From positions 89,223-153,222 of IMG/VR virus record IMGVR_UViG_3300045988_136221: 64,000 nt of DNA. One strand, given 5' to 3'. The DNA is from a virus. The notes below the pieces were generated by a model. The model did not search any database. It saw nothing but the letters and a program-made list of their open reading frames with translations, and was not told the origin of the DNA. Within the stretch, counting starts at the first letter, position 1. Every line of letters starts with the position of its first letter. The position numbers and the translations under genes were made by a program. Of the stretch, positions 10,160 to 64,000 are shown in pieces.

Positions 10160-10528
10160 ATGGATCTAAATAAATTGTATAAAGAAATAGAAGAAGCGGA
10201 GGTCAATCTGAATGCAAAAAGATTAAAGTACATCAAAGAAGCATTAACGGAGAACGGTGGAAGCGTAAAGCTAAAATTTAAAGAGTTTAAAGAATGGCAA
10301 GAAGCTAATAACGTGTTTGACTTTGATGATCAGTTTCCAGTGATAATAGAAATTGATGGAAATTCTATGTATTTAACGGAAGTGTATGTCAAAAAAAACG
10401 ATTTTCGTGTAGTCATGCTGGATTATACTGATATGACTTTTTATGATTATAGCAATCCAGGGGAAAATGAACAGGTTGCTTATTTTATTAACTATTGCTT
10501 AAATCAAGACAAAGATGGGAAAGAGTAG
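10160..10528 (+). CDS. hypothetical protein (122 aa)
   Basis: ORF track. Confidence 0.5.
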   Translation: MDLNKLYKEIEEAEVNLNAKRLKYIKEALTENGGSVKLKFKEFKEWQEANNVFDFDDQFPVIIEIDGNSMYLTEVYVKKNDFRVVMLDYTDMTFYDYSNPGENEQVAYFINYCLNQDKDGKE

Positions 10529-10703
10529 AAAAGATTATGAGAAGTATCTTAACTCAATATCTCCAGATAGAGACGATGAGGCATGGATCATTGGAGGAAA
10601 GAACAGGTATTGCGGTAGAGAGAATTATGGCACTATGATCAAAAGGTATGATCCTATTGGTTTTAACGTAGGGTACAGGGAGTGGGCAGAACAGCCAGAT
10701 TGA
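10515..10703 (+). CDS. hypothetical protein (62 aa); stop codon lies at the IS right-end boundary
   Basis: ORF track; TGA 10701-10703 coincides with start of sequence shared with second TnpB element. Confidence 0.4.
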   Translation: MGKSRKDYEKYLNSISPDRDDEAWIIGGKNRYCGRENYGTMIKRYDPIGFNVGYREWAEQPD

Positions 10704-10870
10704 CATACTCCCATAGCTAAAGCGAATGGGATTCTTGGATACAAACGTATGGAACCCCTGCATTTCTGCAACCGGAATTACCCATACTTTCCAATTCGGA
10801 AATGCCCTTCCGAAGTATATTACGGGCTGCAAGAACATCACGGTCGTTTACCGCTCCGCACGCTGGGCAT
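10700..10870 (-). ncRNA. putative TnpB omegaRNA (reRNA) overlapping tnpB 3' end
   Basis: By established TnpB biology the guide RNA scaffold is encoded at the 3' end of tnpB and the right end. Here the right end terminates ~17 nt past the stop. Extent not verifiable by eye. Confidence 0.3.
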
Positions 10871-11856
10871 ACCCACGTGCGGTCGCGTAACGACAATCCT
10901 TTATTAATGCAGCCACATTCGCAAGTTTTGGAAGAAGGATACCATTTGTCAATCTTGTGTATCGTTACTCCATACTTTGAAGCAACATACGTAAGTTTGT
11001 TAATAAAAGAAGAATGACTGAGGTCAGAAACTTTCTTTCCCCACAAACGTTTCATTCCTTCAATGTTTAGATCTTCAATGAAAATATAATCATACTGTTT
11101 GCATAACTGGTGTGCTAATCCCCATTGAAAATCCGATCGAAGATCGTTTATTTTACGATACGCTTGTTGTAGTTCAAACAGTCTCCTTCTTCTATTATTG
11201 GATCCTTTCTTTGCATTAGAAAACCGTTTGTTTAGTTTTCTAATCTTGTTTTGATATTGTTTGAAGAATAGTGGAGAATCAATTTTGTTCCCATCACTTT
11301 TAGTTAGATAAGTTTTCAGGCCAAAATCCAATCCGATAGATGCACCATCATGTGTCTTTCTATAAGAGTTTATAAGATTATGATCTGTAATAATTATCAG
11401 ACTATATCGATGACATGTTTCTCTAACTATTCTTATTTGTTTAACATTACCTTCGTAGACCCTACTGTATGAGAATTTAAATCGTTTCTTTCCTTTGTTG
11501 ATTGTTAAACAATTACCATTCAGGGTAAACCCTCCTTGTTTGAAAACAAAAGAGTTAAAACAATCAGCTCTTTTGAACTTAGGTGGTCGTTTAGCCAACT
11601 TCTTGAAGAAACGATTGTATGCTGAGTCTAACCTTTGAATAATTTCTTGTGTTGTTTGGGAATGAAGAAGATTTCTCTTAATTCTTTTAGAGAAATGCTT
11701 TTGCATCTTACCAACTGGTATGTATTTTCCAAACAGTTTGTAATATCTACGTTGTAGGGATAAAGCATGATTCCATACAAAACAGCATTCGCGAAGCATC
11801 TTATCAAGATACTTCGTTTTCTTGGAATGATAGATGTTGTATTTGTATGAAATCAT
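10717..11856 (-). CDS. tnpB: TnpB (IS605 OrfB-family RNA-guided nuclease)
   Basis: 379 aa; C-terminal zinc finger (CECGCINKG..CPACGAVNDRD) and RuvC-III-like motif (DVLAARNILRKG); D..E RuvC segments (GLDFGLK; IFIEDL); typical TnpB architecture. Confidence 0.85.
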   Translation of the reverse strand: MISYKYNIYHSKKTKYLDKMLRECCFVWNHALSLQRRYYKLFGKYIPVGKMQKHFSKRIKRNLLHSQTTQEIIQRLDSAYNRFFKKLAKRPPKFKRADCFNSFVFKQGGFTLNGNCLTINKGKKRFKFSYSRVYEGNVKQIRIVRETCHRYSLIIITDHNLINSYRKTHDGASIGLDFGLKTYLTKSDGNKIDSPLFFKQYQNKIRKLNKRFSNAKKGSNNRRRRLFELQQAYRKINDLRSDFQWGLAHQLCKQYDYIFIEDLNIEGMKRLWGKKVSDLSHSSFINKLTYVASKYGVTIHKIDKWYPSSKTCECGCINKGLSLRDRTWVCPACGAVNDRDVLAARNILRKGISELESMGNSGCRNAGVPYVCIQESHSL

Positions 11857-12016
11857 TTTTAATCACATTTATAATACAAATATAATAATAACTTTTTGGC
11901 ATATATCAGAATCAATTATTAAAAAAATACATATATGAATAAAAGAATCATTGATCCCCTGCTTAAAAGCAGGGGATTTGTTAAAGAACGTAAAAAGAAG
12001 ATTAAAATAATAGCTT

Positions 12017-12331
12017 ATGACATTTCGAGAATTTATGCAGGAGAACGGCTATGACCTGATAACTACCTTTTGGGAAGATTTCAGCATAGCCGACAAGTAT
12101 GGTATAGCAGGTGTCAAGGATACCTACAGACGTGCGTTCAATGAATGGAAAGACGATTATAAGTTTTTCACGGAATTAACGCTCGTACTGAATCATAAAA
12201 TATGGCAACATTACGAAAGCGATCGTGAACTGGCTGCATTGTATGACCGGTTGTGGCGGGAAGCCGACGAGTATGCCATGAACAATTTTAAGGGAGAAGA
12301 GCTTGATTATTATTACAGAGTAACAGATTAG
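12017..12331 (+). CDS. hypothetical protein (104 aa)
   Basis: ORF track. Confidence 0.5.
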   Translation: MTFREFMQENGYDLITTFWEDFSIADKYGIAGVKDTYRRAFNEWKDDYKFFTELTLVLNHKIWQHYESDRELAALYDRLWREADEYAMNNFKGEELDYYYRVTD

Positions 12332-25135: not shown

Positions 25136-25797
25136 AAACAGTTTTTGATTTAAGCAGAGATGAGATTACGGCATTGACAGACGAAGACATAAGTCTGTAT
25201 ATAGACAAAGAGCTTGCTAATAAAGGTATTCCAATTGAAGCTAAAAACTGGAATATAAAGAACAAAAAAGAAATCTCGTACCCCAAAACAGGAGTTCCAT
25301 TATTTGTATTAAAAGATATCGGCATCGGTTTTAGAACCATAGAAGGTGCAACTGAGGTGGCCAATTTGCTTGTCAAGTATAATGCATTTAAAACAGAATC
25401 GAGATATCTGGCAGGATCGTATGAACAGTTTTGGATCATGAAGGAGGGTGTTTGCCCGGCTGTTAAAGGAGAAACAGGATATAGCGAGGAAGAGTTTAAT
25501 AAGATAGATGAGAAAAATAAAAACCCTGAATTGACAAGTATAAATACCTTCAATGACACCGTGAAAAAAGCCAATGAAATCAAAGATAGGGTATTGAAAT
25601 ACGTGTACAATATAAAACAAGAGCGTTCATATAACAACGACATGGTTGACATCTTTGAGAGGTATAAGGATATAGCAGATGGCGACATGGAGGTGGCTAT
25701 GAATTTCATTAAGGAGGCTTATCCGTTTAATGAAGAAACAGAGGTATTTATCAGGAAAAAGTTCAACATGTCCATACCAGTTGAGCCAGAAGAGTAA
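25132..25797 (+). CDS. hypothetical protein (221 aa)
   Basis: ORF track. Confidence 0.5.
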   Translation: MKTVFDLSRDEITALTDEDISLYIDKELANKGIPIEAKNWNIKNKKEISYPKTGVPLFVLKDIGIGFRTIEGATEVANLLVKYNAFKTESRYLAGSYEQFWIMKEGVCPAVKGETGYSEEEFNKIDEKNKNPELTSINTFNDTVKKANEIKDRVLKYVYNIKQERSYNNDMVDIFERYKDIADGDMEVAMNFIKEAYPFNEETEVFIRKKFNMSIPVEPEE

Positions 25798-42546: not shown

Positions 42547-44028
42547 ATGGAAAAGATGGATGATATTATTATACCAAAGGGGGAAAGCGTGGTTATTAAC
42601 AAAGATGTTCATGCTTATAAAACATTAGTAGCCCAAAAAGGACTTAAGGTAGTGTGTGAAAAAGATATCAAAAAGGGAGATAAGGAGGCTACGCTGTCGT
42701 ATGAAGGTCGTATGGAAATCGATATACCAATTGAATATATACTGAAGAGTAATAATATCCTTTTCAAAGAGGGAGAATTGCTTTTTGTTAAAAAGGATTA
42801 TTCTTTTAAAGATAACATTGTTCCTGGAGGAGCTATAGTTGAGTTGGCGGAAGATGTCTACAATGTAGATGTTATGGCTGTCATATATTATGAAGGGGGA
42901 AAGACTTGTATGCCCTTAGAATTATTAGAACCTGTTAGTTCAGAAAAAGGCAATAGTGAAAAAGAAGGGAAATCAGTGAAAAATGACATCATTGATGATA
43001 AACTACGATGGGATTTGCTTCCGATGGAAGAAATTGAGGACATTGTAAAAGTCTATCATGCCGGAGCTAAGAAATATGGGCCTAATAATTGGCAGAATCT
43101 TGACAATGGCATAAATAGGTATAGAGCTGCAAGTCAAAGGCATATGATGGAGTATTTAAGAGGAAATAAGATAGATGAAGAAACGGGGTGTTATCATCTT
43201 GCGCAATGCGCATGGAATATTATTGCTATGTTATATCTTGATAAACATGGTCACGGTATAAATGTAGATAAAGCTAAAACTAATAGATTTATAGAAAAAG
43301 CAACACTGGTCCATAATGGACGATATGATTACTCGAACGTTGTTTATATAAAAAACGATGAGAAGGTAGAAATAATATGTAAGACTCATGGATCGTTTAT
43401 GCAAACACCTCATAATCATTTAAACGGAGCAGGATGCCCAAAATGTCATATAGATGGAAATAAAAGACTTATATGCGGAGTAGGAATAAATGATTTTTAT
43501 GGGAAAAAGACAGATAGAAGTTATAATGTATGGATGCATTTAATAAAAAGATGTTATTCTAAAAATAAAAAAGGAGCATATAAAGATTGCACCGTGTGCG
43601 ATGAGTGGAAATTATACAGCAACTTTAAGAAATTTTATGATGATAATTGCAAAAATGACACATTCCACTTAGACAAAGATATACTTGTTCAGGGGAATAA
43701 AATATATTCTCCAAATACATGCTTATTCGTGCCAGAGGAAGTAAATGAGACTATAACGTCAGAATGGAGTGATAATAAATCATTACCTGTAGGTGTAACA
43801 ATGACAAAACTTGGTAAATTTAGAGCAAGATGTTGTGATGGATCCAAAAATGGCAAACAGAAACATCTTGGAGTATTCGACACACCTGAAGAAGCATTTG
43901 AGGCGTACAAAGAGGCGAAATTAAATAGACTGAAAAAGTTAGCGGAAAAATATGTAAAAAGTGGAGATATAGACAAAAGAGTGTACGATGCCATATTAAA
44001 CTATAAAATATTACCATTTAAAGCTTAG
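42547..44028 (+). CDS. multi-domain protein: N-terminal region with RWDLLP-containing domain + HNH-type endonuclease + AP2 DNA-binding domain
   Basis: C-terminal LPVGVTMTKLGKFRARCCDGSKNGKQKHLGVFDTPEEAFEAYKEAK is a textbook AP2 domain; preceding Cys/His cluster (CKTHGSF..HNHLNGAGCPKC; CTVCDEW) is HNH-like. Middle LRWDLLPMEEIEDIVKVYHAGAKKYGPNNW resembles the phage dATP/dGTP-pyrophosphohydrolase N-terminal domain as I remember it (unverified). Confidence 0.45.
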   Translation: MEKMDDIIIPKGESVVINKDVHAYKTLVAQKGLKVVCEKDIKKGDKEATLSYEGRMEIDIPIEYILKSNNILFKEGELLFVKKDYSFKDNIVPGGAIVELAEDVYNVDVMAVIYYEGGKTCMPLELLEPVSSEKGNSEKEGKSVKNDIIDDKLRWDLLPMEEIEDIVKVYHAGAKKYGPNNWQNLDNGINRYRAASQRHMMEYLRGNKIDEETGCYHLAQCAWNIIAMLYLDKHGHGINVDKAKTNRFIEKATLVHNGRYDYSNVVYIKNDEKVEIICKTHGSFMQTPHNHLNGAGCPKCHIDGNKRLICGVGINDFYGKKTDRSYNVWMHLIKRCYSKNKKGAYKDCTVCDEWKLYSNFKKFYDDNCKNDTFHLDKDILVQGNKIYSPNTCLFVPEEVNETITSEWSDNKSLPVGVTMTKLGKFRARCCDGSKNGKQKHLGVFDTPEEAFEAYKEAKLNRLKKLAEKYVKSGDIDKRVYDAILNYKILPFKA

Positions 44029-56329: not shown

Positions 56330-57562
56330 TTACTTTAATATAATCGGATGCCTCTTCCCTCTAATGAGTTTAAACTTTTTGCGTGAAACATCTTTTGAAT
56401 TTTCTCCGTTGAAATCCCTGATATTGAAACTCCCTGATTTTCTCCTTCCATAAACAAAACATATTTTATTATTATACAACACTTTATCAAACAACCTAAA
56501 ACCAAAAACCTCAAAAGGAGCTTGATTGTTTTTCTTCTTTCCTCCTTTTAAAATTTTCATTTTATGTATTTGCCTATTATGCCTACGAATTAAACGTTTT
56601 AAATATTGACATCCGATTCGTTTCGCATTAATGTTCTTAGAAATGACAAACGCGTCGGATGTATGGGATTTTTCAATCCCGTATTTAATCCGATTATGTT
56701 TCGTAATGTAACCAAACGTCATAGAAACTCTGTCGTATCTGGATCTCAGTTCTTCATACAACTTCCATTTCATGATCCCCATTACGGCCGCGTCGCGAAG
56801 CGACTTGCCTCTTCTGATTTTTAAATCTATATTACCTTTATGGTATTCTTTGTGACAAGTTTCACATAAGGTAATAAGATTAGAAGGGGAATCACCTCCC
56901 GTTTTTCGGGATTCAAGATGATGGACATTAAGGATCTTATCTTTTGACTTCCCTTTACAATACTGACATTTATGCCCATCCCTTGCTAAAACATACTCCC
57001 TTGTGTTCCAAAACTCAAGTTGATCACCTTCCTGGTATTCTTTACCTAATATTTCAGGATTCTTAATCTTTTGAGTATCAAATTGAGCTACTTCAATAAC
57101 AATACGAGATATTGGTAGTATAGAGCAAATATTTTCAATAACACGAATATGAGCGTCTACTTTGTATTTCACCGAAGGTGCTATCCATCCTGAACGCTTG
57201 CTTTTTATTCTATTATTAAAACGAGGTTTTCTATATCTTAACCTGTTCCGTCTTGTTTTCCGTAGCTCTCTTCTGGTAGACAAAAGATCTACGATATCAT
57301 TTCTAAGAATTACTTCACTGCTGTAAAGTTCTTTGCTTTTCGTTGTAGCTGATAGACCAACGTGTTTGGTCCCAGCATCAACGCCTAACACAATTTCTTG
57401 TTTGTAATCAGATGTGACGTACGTTAATTTGATGGTAAACGGACATAAGCTCACAACAACTGCCTTGTTTTCTTTAAGCAGTCGTCTTACCTTACCATGC
57501 CTTGTTGTAGGCATCATAGGTTTACCATCTATGTCTTGTACGTACACCATATCTACAAACAT
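56330..57562 (-). CDS. iscB: IscB (OMEGA RNA-guided RuvC+HNH nuclease, Cas9 ancestor family)
   Basis: N-terminal PLMP domain (DGKPMMPTTRHGKVRRLL); RuvC-I LGVDAGTKHVGLS; Arg-rich bridge helix TRRELRKTRRNRLRYRKPRFNNR; RuvC-II RIVIEVAQFD; HNH HKCQYC...LNVHHLESRKTGGDSPSNLITLCETCHKEYH; RuvC-III HTSDAFVI. Confidence 0.85.
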   Translation of the reverse strand: MFVDMVYVQDIDGKPMMPTTRHGKVRRLLKENKAVVVSLCPFTIKLTYVTSDYKQEIVLGVDAGTKHVGLSATTKSKELYSSEVILRNDIVDLLSTRRELRKTRRNRLRYRKPRFNNRIKSKRSGWIAPSVKYKVDAHIRVIENICSILPISRIVIEVAQFDTQKIKNPEILGKEYQEGDQLEFWNTREYVLARDGHKCQYCKGKSKDKILNVHHLESRKTGGDSPSNLITLCETCHKEYHKGNIDLKIRRGKSLRDAAVMGIMKWKLYEELRSRYDRVSMTFGYITKHNRIKYGIEKSHTSDAFVISKNINAKRIGCQYLKRLIRRHNRQIHKMKILKGGKKKNNQAPFEVFGFRLFDKVLYNNKICFVYGRRKSGSFNIRDFNGENSKDVSRKKFKLIRGKRHPIILK

Positions 57563-57852
57563 TTTTAATGTTTATTCAACATAAGTCAGGAATATTTCAT
57601 CCTGTTAGTACCCATCGCCAATGTTATAAGAGGTTTTGATGCAAGCAACACTGTTTCGCAAATACACTACTCCTGTTTAATCGCTTGCCTTAGAGCTACG
57701 GACTTGGGCAAACATCCGTAGGTAACTATCTATTCTCAAATAACGTAGCCTTCGTTTCAAGGCTTAGGCTAATATCCGGACCATTTATGGTACATTAAAA
57801 CCTTATAATGAAATTATATTGTTTTAATGTTATTTCGGATATACAAACAAAC
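57563..57852 (-). ncRNA. putative IscB omegaRNA region (5' of iscB)
   Basis: 290-bp ORF-free region immediately upstream of iscB with several stem-loops (e.g. ctacgga..tccgtag; agcctt..aaggct). By established IscB biology the omegaRNA is encoded directly upstream of the ORF. Ends not determinable by eye. Confidence 0.45.
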
Positions 57853-58620
57853 TCATCCCGCAATCTCCCAGTCATTAGACATAATATCATGTTCGGTTGG
57901 ATTCCAATTTGATGCTACTTTTTGACCTGTATCTACCATCAATATATTTACGTCAGATTCTGCAATAAACATACAGATATACTTTTTACCCCAATCGATT
58001 CTTTTTATCTTACGACCTAATTTAAGCTGTTCTAAAGCCTTTTCGAATGTCATGCCATGACGAGGCAGTTTGAGATACTTTTCAAGTCTGTCGGCGGCTT
58101 CATTTGGTGTATGGCCATCATATTCGAAAGCGGTTTCTCTTTCAGGAACATCAAACAAATCCCAGTATTTGCTTTTATAGTGATTAGATACCTGACCGGT
58201 AGGCAGGATCGCCATCACAATAAACCAGTCATCAGAACCGAAGCATTTTTCTCCGTCGCTGTGTCTCCTTGATTTGCAAACTTCAACCTGTCCGTTTCTG
58301 GCTAATAGATTAAAGAAGGCAGCGTTATACAACATGCGGTACCGATACAATTCATTGAAAGTATGGTATCCGTCAGAAACTTCTCCCATGTCTCCTGGTT
58401 CTGCTTCAGGTTTAGGATGATTAGGATAATAGTAGTCCACTGATGCTTCTAACACAGACTTGATGTGTTCTACTATCCTCGTAGCATCATCATGTCTTAA
58501 GAAATACTTGAATCCTTCAACGAATTTAATATCTTCATTGATTGTTGATTCGAACTCTTCTTTTGTCATCACTCCAATTACATCTTTTTTAAAATCGTCT
58601 AATCCCATAATTTGTTTCAA
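57853..58620 (-). CDS. two-domain protein with C-terminal DUF2829 (Tad2-like) domain
   Basis: C-terminal ~65 aa MTFEKALEQLKLGRKIKRIDWGKKY...HDIMSNDWEIAG matches my recollection of the DUF2829 pattern (M.FeeAl..lK.GkkvrR.gW ... DWEiv), the family of Thoeris anti-defence Tad2. N-terminal 190 aa unknown. Confidence 0.5.
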   Translation of the reverse strand: MKQIMGLDDFKKDVIGVMTKEEFESTINEDIKFVEGFKYFLRHDDATRIVEHIKSVLEASVDYYYPNHPKPEAEPGDMGEVSDGYHTFNELYRYRMLYNAAFFNLLARNGQVEVCKSRRHSDGEKCFGSDDWFIVMAILPTGQVSNHYKSKYWDLFDVPERETAFEYDGHTPNEAADRLEKYLKLPRHGMTFEKALEQLKLGRKIKRIDWGKKYICMFIAESDVNILMVDTGQKVASNWNPTEHDIMSNDWEIAG

Positions 58621-62613: not shown

Positions 62614-62985
62614 TTATGAAACTTCTATTTCATAATGCGAAGCCTCTGTTTCAACTATCAATCTTCCCTCTCCTTCGAACTCAACACTGTCATTTCCCGG
62701 ACCAGTAACAAAAGGGAAATCAGATACGGATGTTACATAATCTCCAGAACCACCGGAAAAAGACTGACTTTTACTTTGTTTGTAATTGATAGTCAATTGT
62801 GTTTTACCTGGCTGAAGAGTTCCAGATAAATTTTTAGTATAAGTGGTGGTAGTCGTAATATTCCCATTTTTATAGCAATACATTATAAAGGTAGTAACCG
62901 GACTCTTTTTAATATTACTATCTGGACCTTCATGTTGACATACTCCCATCGCTAAAGCAAATGGGATTCTTGGATACAAACGCAA
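62614..62985 (-). CDS. hypothetical protein (123 aa); annotated N-terminus runs into TnpB element right end
   Basis: ORF track; first ~20 codons lie inside the sequence shared with the other IS copy (from 62925), so true start may be an internal Met. Confidence 0.4.
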   Translation of the reverse strand: MRLYPRIPFALAMGVCQHEGPDSNIKKSPVTTFIMYCYKNGNITTTTTYTKNLSGTLQPGKTQLTINYKQSKSQSFSGGSGDYVTSVSDFPFVTGPGNDSVEFEGEGRLIVETEASHYEIEVS

Positions 62986-64000
62986 GAAACCCCGATGTTG
63001 CTATCGTTGGAATTACTCTTGCTTTCCAATTCGGAAATGCCCTTCCGAAGTATATTACAGGCTGCAAGAACATCACGGTCGTTAATTGCACCGCACGCCG
63101 GGCACACCCACGTGCGGTCGCGTAACGACAATCCTTTATTAATGCAGCCACATTCACAAGTTTTGGAAGAAGGATACCATTTGTCAATCTTGTGTATCGT
63201 TACTCCATACTTTGAAGCAACATACGTAAGTTTGTTAATAAAAGAAGAATGACTGAGGTCAGAAACTTTCTTTCCCCACAAACGTTTCATTCCTTCAATG
63301 TTTAGATCTTCAATGAAAATATAATCATACTGTTTGCATAACTGGTGTGCTAATCCCCATTGAAAATCCGATCGAAGATCGTTTATTTTACGATACGCTT
63401 GTTGTAGTTCAAACAGTCTCCTTCTTCTATTGTTGGATCCTTTAACAGATTTAGAAATCCTTTTATTGCATTTCTTGATCTTGTTTTGATATTGTTTGAA
63501 GAATAGAGGAGAATTAATTTTGCTACCATCACTTTTAGTTAGATAAGTTTTCAGACCAAAATCCAATCCGATAGATGCACCATCATGTGTCTTTCTATAA
63601 GAGTTTGAAGGATTATGGTCTGTAATTATAATCAAACTAAAACGTGAACAGGTTTCTCTAACTATTCTAATTTGCTTAACATTACCTTCATAAGGTCTAC
63701 TGTATGAGAATCTAAATCGTTTCTTTCCTTTGTTAATTGTTAGACAATTACCATTCAGGGTAAAACCTCCTTGTTTGAATACAAAAGAATTGAATTTCTC
63801 CGGTGATTTAAACTTAGGAGGTCGTTTAGCCAACTTCTTAAAGAAACGATTATAAGATTCATCAAGACGTTCAAGTATTTCTTGTGTTGTTTGGGAATGA
63901 AGAAGATTTCTTTTAATTCTTTTGGCAAAATACTTCTTCATTTTGCCAACTGGTATGTATTTTCCAAACAGTTTGTAATATCTACGTTGTAGGGATAAAG
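62925..64000 (-). mobile_element. IS200/IS605-family (tnpB-only) element, copy 2 (runs off window end)
   Basis: ~90% identical by eye to 10700-11780 including antisense frames. Diverged, not an exact duplicate. Confidence 0.55.
62952..64000 (-). CDS. tnpB: TnpB, second copy (5' end beyond window)
   Basis: Protein nearly identical to copy 1 through the RuvC and zinc-finger region (…WVCPACGAINDRDVLAACNILRKG…), divergent C-terminal tail. Reading frame still open at position 64000. Confidence 0.8.
   Translation of the reverse strand, partial: LSLQRRYYKLFGKYIPVGKMKKYFAKRIKRNLLHSQTTQEILERLDESYNRFFKKLAKRPPKFKSPEKFNSFVFKQGGFTLNGNCLTINKGKKRFRFSYSRPYEGNVKQIRIVRETCSRFSLIIITDHNPSNSYRKTHDGASIGLDFGLKTYLTKSDGSKINSPLFFKQYQNKIKKCNKRISKSVKGSNNRRRRLFELQQAYRKINDLRSDFQWGLAHQLCKQYDYIFIEDLNIEGMKRLWGKKVSDLSHSSFINKLTYVASKYGVTIHKIDKWYPSSKTCECGCINKGLSLRDRTWVCPACGAINDRDVLAACNILRKGISELESKSNSNDSNIGVSCVCIQESHLL

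Follow-up and report, generated by a model that had tools for sequence, protein, structure and literature searches.

Two non-autonomous IS608-like tnpB elements in a gut phage genome and the DNA missing beside their right ends

A 64,000-nt stretch of phage DNA (IMG/VR record IMGVR_UViG_3300045988_136221, positions 89,223 to 153,222; hereafter the window) carries two related copies of the gene tnpB. The locus raises the question of whether these copies are mobile elements with definable ends or phage genes of TnpB descent, and of what happened to the phage DNA on either side of them. Comparison with relatives identified them as ordinary members of the IS200/IS605 family, of known type. The best overall explanation, to which we assign a probability of about 0.8, is that both are non-autonomous IS200/IS605 elements with IS608-type ends, which would home and whose right flanks were probably changed by deletions made by the transposase TnpA. 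The original prediction, made from the window sequence without database searches, had proposed two diverged IS605-family elements; the lack of a transposase gene, the different left ends and targets, the missing flank DNA and the splitting of a phage gene by copy 2 go beyond it.

Both copies were located by open reading frame (ORF) listing, reading of the sequence and pairwise alignment.

10700..11989, minus strand: copy 1, a complete IS608-like element without tnpA (1290 bp, left end type A)
10717..11856, minus strand: tnpB of copy 1 (379 aa)
62935..64000, minus strand: copy 2, an element of 1242 bp of which the window contains the right-hand 1066 bp before it ends (left end type B, target TTAT)
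62952..64000, minus strand: tnpB of copy 2 (stop codon 62952-62954; approximately 30 N-terminal codons lie outside the window)

The ends of copy 1 were fixed by alignment to independent insertions and uninterrupted alleles. The full copy 2 (1242 bp) was found in a Joint Genome Institute contig (L242), with 3 mismatches to the window over 1066 nt. The source contig of the window (L243, an ENA gut-metagenome scaffold of 153,217 bp, 100% identical over the 8001 nt compared) stops at the start codon of the copy 2 tnpB, which points to a break in assembly at this repeated element; the left junction of copy 2 is therefore known only from L242. Over the bases shared in the window, 958 of 1066 nt were identical (89.9%, ungapped), as were 342 of the 379 TnpB residues. 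The copies are thus diverged and not an assembly duplicate, as had been proposed, with the identity put by eye at approximately 90%. A 275-nt stretch was perfectly identical amid the divergence of approximately 10%, which indicates gene conversion between copies; the two are mosaic. Homology began abruptly at TTGACATACTCC in both copies in the pairwise alignment, and both ended sharply at ...GGGAGTATGTCAA, at window position 10700 in copy 1 and 62935 in copy 2. This shared, abrupt border had been anticipated, with that of copy 2 placed at 62925. The left ends were not homologous (type A vs type B), and similarity between the two copies covered only the ORF, a few bases just upstream and the 17-nt right-end tail. 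No further copies or solo ends were found in the window with blastn-short.

The element ends were defined with relatives from IMG/VR, comprising 92 loci or copies that were 86–98% identical and represented 35 junction combinations. In total, more than 300 tnpB loci were retrieved from phages in IMG/VR, a single genome carrying as many as three copies; a second TnpB query returned nearly the same loci and 10 new ones. In the tnpB orientation, all copies ended with ...GGGAGTATGTCA(A), 17 nt past the stop codon, and the sharp right end ...GTATGTCAA was adjoined by 35 different flanks. Left end type A (copy 1) reads TTAC followed by GATCTTTAACAAAG-CCCCTGCTTTTAAGCAGGGG..., and type B (copy 2) reads TTAT followed by GATTATTTAACCAACAAAA-CCACC...GGTGG...; each type was common to many sites. 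Every copy was inserted 3' of TTAC or TTAT, with neither target duplication nor terminal inverted repeats. At three sites of simple insertion in relatives (L193, L227 and L198), the flanks were contiguous in the window, at 62617/62618, 46015/46014 and 25307/25308, and were not duplicated. The elements therefore have the defined ends that had been proposed for them. Independent copies without the common boundary, which would have spoken against membership in the family, were not seen, nor were uninterrupted alleles without a TTAY (TTAC or TTAT) beside the guide match. The observation that would have told against such ends, a similarity confined to the ORF, nearly holds between the two window copies; the ends emerged from the relatives.

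Both ends of the elements contained subterminal hairpins, each with a guide tetranucleotide on its 5' side, and the hairpins covaried.

10700..10734, minus strand: right-end recognition module of copy 1, read from the sequence
10731-10734, minus strand: guide tetranucleotide GAAT of the right end
10710-10730, minus strand: hairpin CCCAT..ATGGG, the loop of which contains the stop codon TAG of tnpB (10717-10719); the hairpin covaries in relatives
10700-10703, minus strand: cleavage tetranucleotide TCAA of the right end
11857..11989, minus strand: left end of copy 1 (type A), kept in independent insertions
11956-11975, minus strand: left hairpin CCCCTGC TTAAAA GCAGGGG, conserved in independent insertions and autonomous elements
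11976-11979, minus strand: tetranucleotide 5' of the left hairpin foot (AAAT in copy 1, AAAG in most relatives)
11990..11993, minus strand: target and transposon-adjacent motif (TAM) TTAC of copy 1 (GTAA on the plus strand); TTAC precedes every type A copy

The right end has the layout GAAT-hairpin-AGTATG-TCAA. A left-end hairpin had been suspected at 11958-11981; the hairpin is real and lies at 11956-11975. The GTAA at 11990..11993 was native in relatives of the class designated 'gap 1553'. At right ends the tetranucleotide GAAT was paired with TCAA; at left ends, AAAG went with TTAC in type A and AAAA with TTAT in type B. IS608 uses GAAT/TCAA at the right and AAAG with TTAC at the left (PMC5934647), and the AAAA/TTAT combination of type B is the change predicted by the IS608 base-pairing rule. 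One relative (L291) had a tandem GTCAA GTCAA at its right end, in which the terminal cleavage motif is duplicated over 5 nt; the flank that follows is that of L294.

TnpB of copy 1 contained the Pfam domains OrfB_IS605, Cas12f1-like_TNB and HTH_OrfB_IS605 and aligned over its full length to the ISDra2 TnpB structures 8BF8, 8EXA and 8H1J (E=2e-29). The motifs GLDFG, IEDLN and NDRD aligned to the RuvC catalytic D, E and D of 8BF8, which we take to be the catalytic residues of ISDra2 TnpB as assigned from published structures, and both CxxC pairs of the zinc finger were present. The D, E and D motifs and the CxxC pairs were also present in copy 2. Judged by these residues, the window TnpB is not a nuclease-dead derivative of the TldR type.

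No tnpA was present in either window copy, neither of which has room for one, and no ORF with a Y1 motif was found within the 64-kb window. A motif screen of all fetched DNA detected a 132-aa ORF inside the type A left end of two relatives (L233 and L238), divergent from tnpB, which was identified as a Y1 transposase (Pfam Y1_Tnp, E=9e-39). Y1_Tnp also occurred inside the same ends in L245-L259. Altogether, approximately 20 phage loci had tnpA, whereas tnpB was found in more than 300. In copy 1, the type A left end matched the autonomous left end minus tnpA. Since the ends are kept and tnpA is absent in the window and present in relatives, the window copies are non-autonomous derivatives; all features of the IS200/IS605 family, IS608 type, were found except a resident tnpA, which relatives carry. 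A distant relative (L260/L261), with a tnpA 72% and a TnpB 28% identical to those of this lineage, retained a terminal hairpin, the loop of which is of the CTTTAG type, with GGGAGTAGTCA after it. The stop codon of tnpB lies within that loop in close copies, and in L260 the frame ends approximately 20 nt further on.

A further reduction was seen at the copy 1 site. The copy 1 insertion itself was also present in L162, and four other relatives (L015, L016, L100 and L104) carried a tnpB-less mini element with the copy 1 flanks, approximately 200 bp long in L015 and L016. Approximately 74 nt remain of its right end, along with the greater part of the left end, and it is an internal-deletion derivative resembling palindrome-associated transposable elements (PATEs) and miniature inverted-repeat transposable elements.

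Because the similarity between the window copies is nearly confined to the ORF, and phage-encoded repressors derived from TnpB are known (PMC10705468), a domesticated derivative used in regulation, either a TldR-like repressor or a duplicated phage gene, had to be considered. The original prediction had named a domesticated duplicated gene as the outcome that would overturn it. We regard this as very improbable: the RuvC D-E-D residues are intact, the transposon ends are sharp and occur in 35 junction combinations, autonomous tnpA-bearing relatives exist, and the guides described below equal the local phage flank only and not a host gene.

The 3' part of tnpB was found to overlap a predicted RNA.

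10700..10814, minus strand: predicted omegaRNA scaffold of copy 1 (115 nt, minimum extent; from covariation and folding)
62935..63049, minus strand: predicted omegaRNA scaffold of copy 2 (from the alignment and structure that also gave the scaffold of copy 1)

An alignment of 45 non-redundant right ends gave a five-helix structure within the last 115–116 nt, overlapping the tnpB 3' end and ending at the element boundary. A standard pair was formed in 99% of the cells of the helices, with compensatory changes at 10 pairs. None of 500 shuffles reached the observed pairing, and a control with the partners slid by 1–3 columns was 33–56% paired. Helices 1 and 2 were invariant, synonymous codon positions included, and copies 1 and 2 differed in helices 3 and 4 by compensatory changes. 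A single-sequence fold of copy 1 returned the same helices. The predicted structure is thus supported by covariation. Rfam searches of the whole window at the gathering threshold, and of the element regions at permissive E-values, returned no omegaRNA family; the sole match there was a chance match to a long non-coding RNA.

This pattern of conservation bears on a further alternative, that the elements are inert passengers whose TnpB and RNA are inactive, which are spread by TnpA in trans and by ordinary phage recombination, and whose guides have no consequence. The conclusions here are drawn from sequence and not from activity, the left guide tetranucleotide of copy 1 is mutated, and the tnpB-less mini derivatives persist, all of which would fit inert elements. 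The conservation of both partners argues otherwise. The tnpB ORF was full-length in more than 80 copies (86–98% identity), with the catalytic triad and zinc finger kept; the omegaRNA stems were maintained by compensatory changes within coding sequence, helices 1 and 2 even at synonymous sites; and the ratio of tnpB to tnpA of approximately 15 to 1 implies maintenance without the transposase. Inert passengers are therefore considered improbable.

In an active element, the guide would be encoded by the flank at the right end, and in both copies this flank belongs to a phage gene.

10680..10699, minus strand: guide-encoding flank of copy 1, TCTGGCTGTTCTGCCCACTC, antisense of the last codons of ORF 10515..10703
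10515..10703, plus strand: phage ORF (62 aa), in which the right end of copy 1 rewrites the last codon and the stop, GAG TAA to GAT TGA
62915..62934, minus strand: guide-encoding flank of copy 2, CATGAAGGTCCAGATAGTAA, found in the uninterrupted gene of relatives

ORF 10515..10703 ends ...CAG CCR GAG TAA in relatives and ...CAG CCA GAT TGA in the window, in agreement with the proposal that the right end of copy 1 supplies its stop codon. A preference of the right end for giving stop codons to antisense genes was considered and rejected: approximately 6–7 of 30 junctions did so, which is not clearly above the expectation for densely coding DNA. In relatives without the insertion, the copy 1 guide flank is preceded by TTAC; the TTA of this motif, read on the opposite strand, is the TAA that stops ORF 10515..10703. 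The 80 loci fetched for this site (L002-L081) contained 14 perfect 16-nt matches to the copy 1 guide, and 20 locus entries matched all 20 nt. The copy 2 guide flank is preceded by AATGAATCTTAT (TTAT) where the gene is uninterrupted at that point, with a perfect match in L236 and 1–2 mismatches in L193, L195 and L202. No second near-match to either guide was found anywhere in the window. As had been predicted, each copy thus takes its guide from its own right-end flank, TTAC or TTAT preceding the 20 nt in uninterrupted alleles, with perfect matches among them. Each guide appears to point at TAM-adjacent uninterrupted alleles in related phages, which are predicted to be cleaved, and the layout of guide and target is the one that would be expected for TnpB homing (PMC10055086). 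Homing between co-infecting phages was listed as theoretical in a 2026 review (PMC13565253).

Altered target motifs were also observed. The window has TTGT in place of TTAT at 25304-25307, the site of an insertion in relatives, and at the copy 1 site the motif is TCAC or CTAC in some relatives, which corresponds to a TGA or TAG stop codon, while the rest of the target matches. Such alleles may represent escape, or the variation may be neutral.

Neither window copy is a simple insertion: the DNA between the TTAY (TTAC or TTAT) of the left flank and a second, downstream TTAY is missing (1.33 kb for copy 1 and 177 bp for copy 2). Copy 1 occupies the place of approximately 1.33 kb encoding a 156-aa ORF and a 251-aa ORF. 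Its left flank, GTAAAAAGAAGATTAAAATAATAGC on the plus strand, is native in relatives that have these two ORFs between ORF 10515..10703 and the ORF starting at 12017, and its right flank begins after a different TTAC, approximately 1.33 kb from the left-flank site. The interval 10704-12016 was hypervariable among relatives (loci L002-L161), falling into more than 20 classes by length (approximately 90–2550 bp), with varied combinations of 93-, 156-, 155/251- and 231-aa ORFs. Most relatives had a conserved GC-rich stretch just past the stop codon, GGCGGNGCCNGCCCTGCCATGAGG..GGCCTGGCTGT..GTGGCCAGG, which looks structured.

Copy 2 lies within a phage gene of approximately 190 aa, as determined by comparison with the intact gene in L193 and with L242.

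62614..62934, minus strand: 3' remnant (106 codons) of the approximately 190-aa phage gene split by copy 2

The first 27 codons of the gene lie beyond the left end of copy 2, and 59 codons (177 bp) are missing; the right flank of copy 2 follows a second TTAT, 177 bp downstream of the left-flank site at codon 27. The exact junction of copy 2 had no match in IMG/VR. An overlap of copy 2 with the annotated start of ORF 62614..62985 had been noted, but copy 2 splits a gene and does not overlap a gene start: this ORF is the remnant extended into the right end of copy 2 up to a TTG, and its 'start' is an artefact of ORF calling. The gene is an insertion hotspot, with at least 4 junctions in both orientations within approximately 320 bp (relatives L193, L195, L202 and L236), one of which, at the stop codon, preserves the protein (TCA TAA to TCT TGA).

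Copy 2 lies in the sense orientation within this gene, and the flanks are in frame across it with 177 bp missing (...DIEVY/HEGPD...), so that an IStron-like element with a self-splicing intron, through which the split gene would still be expressed, was considered. We find this hard to credit. Even at E<=1, the window and the full-length copy 2 of L242 yielded neither a group I intron nor any other Rfam family in its support, the left end of approximately 90 nt is too short for a ribozyme, and an in-frame join has a 1 in 3 chance of occurring.

The missing DNA followed a pattern shared by other copies. Segments of 491, 256, 202 and 187 bp that are bounded by TTAT-like sites in the window, which has no insertion there, were absent from L165, L236, L187 and L212. 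In nearly every case with native context available, the right flank was natively preceded by TTAY, and a pre-existing natural deletion was rejected on this ground as the cause of the non-contiguous flanks. The new right junctions followed TTAC, CTAC or TCAC in type A copies and TTAT or ATAT in type B copies. Several copies formed nested series with a shared left junction, namely L181, L192 (+136) and L196 (+350); L193, L236 (+256) and L202 (+296); L173 and L169 (+129); L163 and L167 (+14); and L198 and L191 (+12). Eight left flanks were each paired with two or three right flanks, and no right flank was paired with more than one left flank.

These junctions could have arisen without any special transposase reaction if two copies in the same orientation at nearby TTAY sites had been collapsed by homologous recombination, whether inside a single genome or between phages in co-infection. 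In every such copy a TTAY-like site is found at both junctions, which two ordinary insertions would also give; phages readily recombine, the copies themselves do so (the 275-nt identical block in copies otherwise 90% identical), and a genome may hold up to three of them. However, a collapse predicts symmetry, and approximately 10 extra right flanks were observed vs 0 extra left flanks. No simple insertion was found at any of the downstream sites among approximately 90 copies, and no second copy or solo end occurred within 2.5 kb (<=2.5 kb) of any of 80 elements. Two of the deletions span just 12 and 14 nt, ending at the near-cognate sites ATAT and TCAC, a spacing too small for two full insertions to be a natural precursor. 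We therefore consider recombinational collapse unlikely, albeit the most serious of the alternatives, and a reaction catalysed by TnpA the most likely origin of the missing DNA.

The preferred reading, of mobile elements with TnpA-made right-end deletions, can be laid out as follows. Each copy consists of a TTAC or TTAT target, a left end with its hairpin, tnpB, and a predicted omegaRNA scaffold ending at the right-end boundary. The Y1 transposase TnpA would be supplied in trans by tnpA-bearing elements of sister phages; it would read the hairpins and pair the tetranucleotide 5' of each with its cleavage site, and the element would move as single-stranded DNA. TnpB would load the omegaRNA, the last approximately 16–20 nt of which would be transcribed from the phage DNA beside the right end, and would cut genomes that contain TTAY next to a match to the guide, those of co-infecting or sister phages without this arrangement. 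Recombinational repair would then copy the element into the cut genome. In the deletions, TnpA would cleave TCAA normally, and the active site guided by the left end would cut a downstream TTAY and not the element's own. The right end would thereby be joined to a new flank, and TnpB would gain a new guide. The flanks would be asymmetric because only the left-end guide can read TTAY, and the dependence of the new junctions on left-end type would have the same cause.

The strongest form of this proposal is that an IS608-like transposase makes one-sided, nested right-end deletions, that the choice between TTAC and TTAT is set by a single base (AAAG or AAAA), and that the element acts as an RNA-guided drive against the undeleted allele, spreading both itself and the loss of accessory genes. 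We put it forward tentatively, at somewhat less than even odds. Such deletion behaviour, reprogramming the guide, is possibly new for the IS200/IS605 family.

Several points weigh against the preferred reading. The case for transposition and homing draws on known IS608 and TnpB biology by analogy, the presumed TAM of TnpB is taken from the transposase target, and we infer the deletion mechanism itself from the left/right asymmetry. The tetranucleotide 5' of the copy 1 left hairpin is AAAT instead of AAAG, so the function of this end may be impaired. A search of IMG/VR for the simple-insertion ancestor predicted for copy 1 found none, and no report of deletions adjacent to the right end was found in the literature on IS608 and IS200/IS605 transposases. 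The junction comparison covers approximately 90 of roughly 310 copies, and the negative result for a Y1-motif ORF applies to the window only and not to the other 89 kb of the genome.

The elements resemble several known systems. Like IS608 of Helicobacter pylori, they insert 3' of TTAC without duplication, have a right end terminating in TCAA and carry AAAG and GAAT guides 5' of the hairpins (PMC5934647), and their autonomous forms encode a Y1 transposase and TnpB. Unlike in IS608, where the two genes are co-directional, tnpA and tnpB diverge in the autonomous relatives, as they do in IS605; tnpA is missing from the window copies, AAAA/TTAT constitutes a second left-end type of natural origin, and the residence is a virulent-looking phage family of approximately 150 kb, vs a bacterial chromosome. 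Like the TnpB–omegaRNA system of ISDra2 from Deinococcus radiodurans, they combine D-E-D residues and a zinc finger with a putative omegaRNA that overlaps the tnpB 3' end, ends at the boundary and would take its guide from the flank. They differ from it in the probable TAM (TTAC/TTAT vs TTGAT), in protein length (379 aa vs 408) and in a scaffold that is not in Rfam. With tnpB-only IS1341-type elements and PATEs they share the absence of tnpA, the retention of both ends and a presumed mobilisation in trans; unlike for these, a recognisable autonomous parent exists here within the same gene pool.

The expected behaviour resembles TnpB homing and a plasmid gene drive, in which the guide is directed at the vacant site next to a TAM, and homologous repair with the occupied copy as donor restores the element or spreads it (PMC10055086; PMC11870625). 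Here, the targets would be the genomes of co-infecting phages, and many copies would also drive the deletion of neighbouring DNA. As with the free-standing homing endonuclease genes SegF, SegB and Mob of T-even phages, the elements lie between conserved genes in variable hotspots, and cutting of the rival allele with co-conversion of the flanks would be expected. Unlike those genes, they would recognise their target with an RNA guide and a 4-nt motif instead of a protein, and they have transposon ends.

The window is phage DNA, encoding a 2138-aa virion structural protein, a helicase, an exonuclease and an HNH endonuclease, and it falls in a large family of human-gut phage contigs of approximately 150 kb in IMG/VR. 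The nearest deposited phage, csAssE-Sib, has a tnpB 77% identical in DNA and 80% in protein, located beside a ring-protein gene; no phage paper using the name csAssE was found. A near-identity search of INPHARED returned two records only, with tnpB 75–77% identical and no match to the phage backbone. Copies with an identity of 70% or more to the window protein occurred on phage-sized contigs only, and the best bacterial matches (62% and 55%) were to metagenome-assembled genomes of Bacteroidales. From these identities, the lineage appears to be confined to phages, and a Bacteroidales host is suggested.

Three further loci of the window were recorded. A second system of the OMEGA type (obligate mobile element-guided activity) was encoded on the minus strand.

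56330..57562, minus strand: IscB gene (410 aa, Pfam RRXRR and HNH)
57604-57842, minus strand, directly upstream of IscB: HEARO omegaRNA (Rfam RF02033, 101.8 bits, E=8e-20)
57853-58620, minus strand, beside IscB: ORF with WDGH and Tad2-like (Thoeris anti-defence 2) domains, likely an anti-defence gene
42547-44028, plus strand: 493-aa ORF with an HNH region and a region matching PHROGs dATP/dGTP pyrophosphohydrolase or endolysin, a possible selfish endonuclease gene

The more than 300 tnpB loci in IMG/VR represent an OMEGA transposon lineage residing in phages, dispersed over dozens of sites within one family of human-gut phages. Occupied, empty, TAM-altered and deletion alleles of the same sites coexist in these genomes and provide material with which homing between co-infecting viruses can be tested. 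The retargeting engineered in IS608 has a natural parallel in the AAAG/TTAC and AAAA/TTAT pairs. If the deletions are indeed made by the transposase, they would show how a nuclease with a fixed guide can change that guide, and how accessory genes are erased in phage hotspots.

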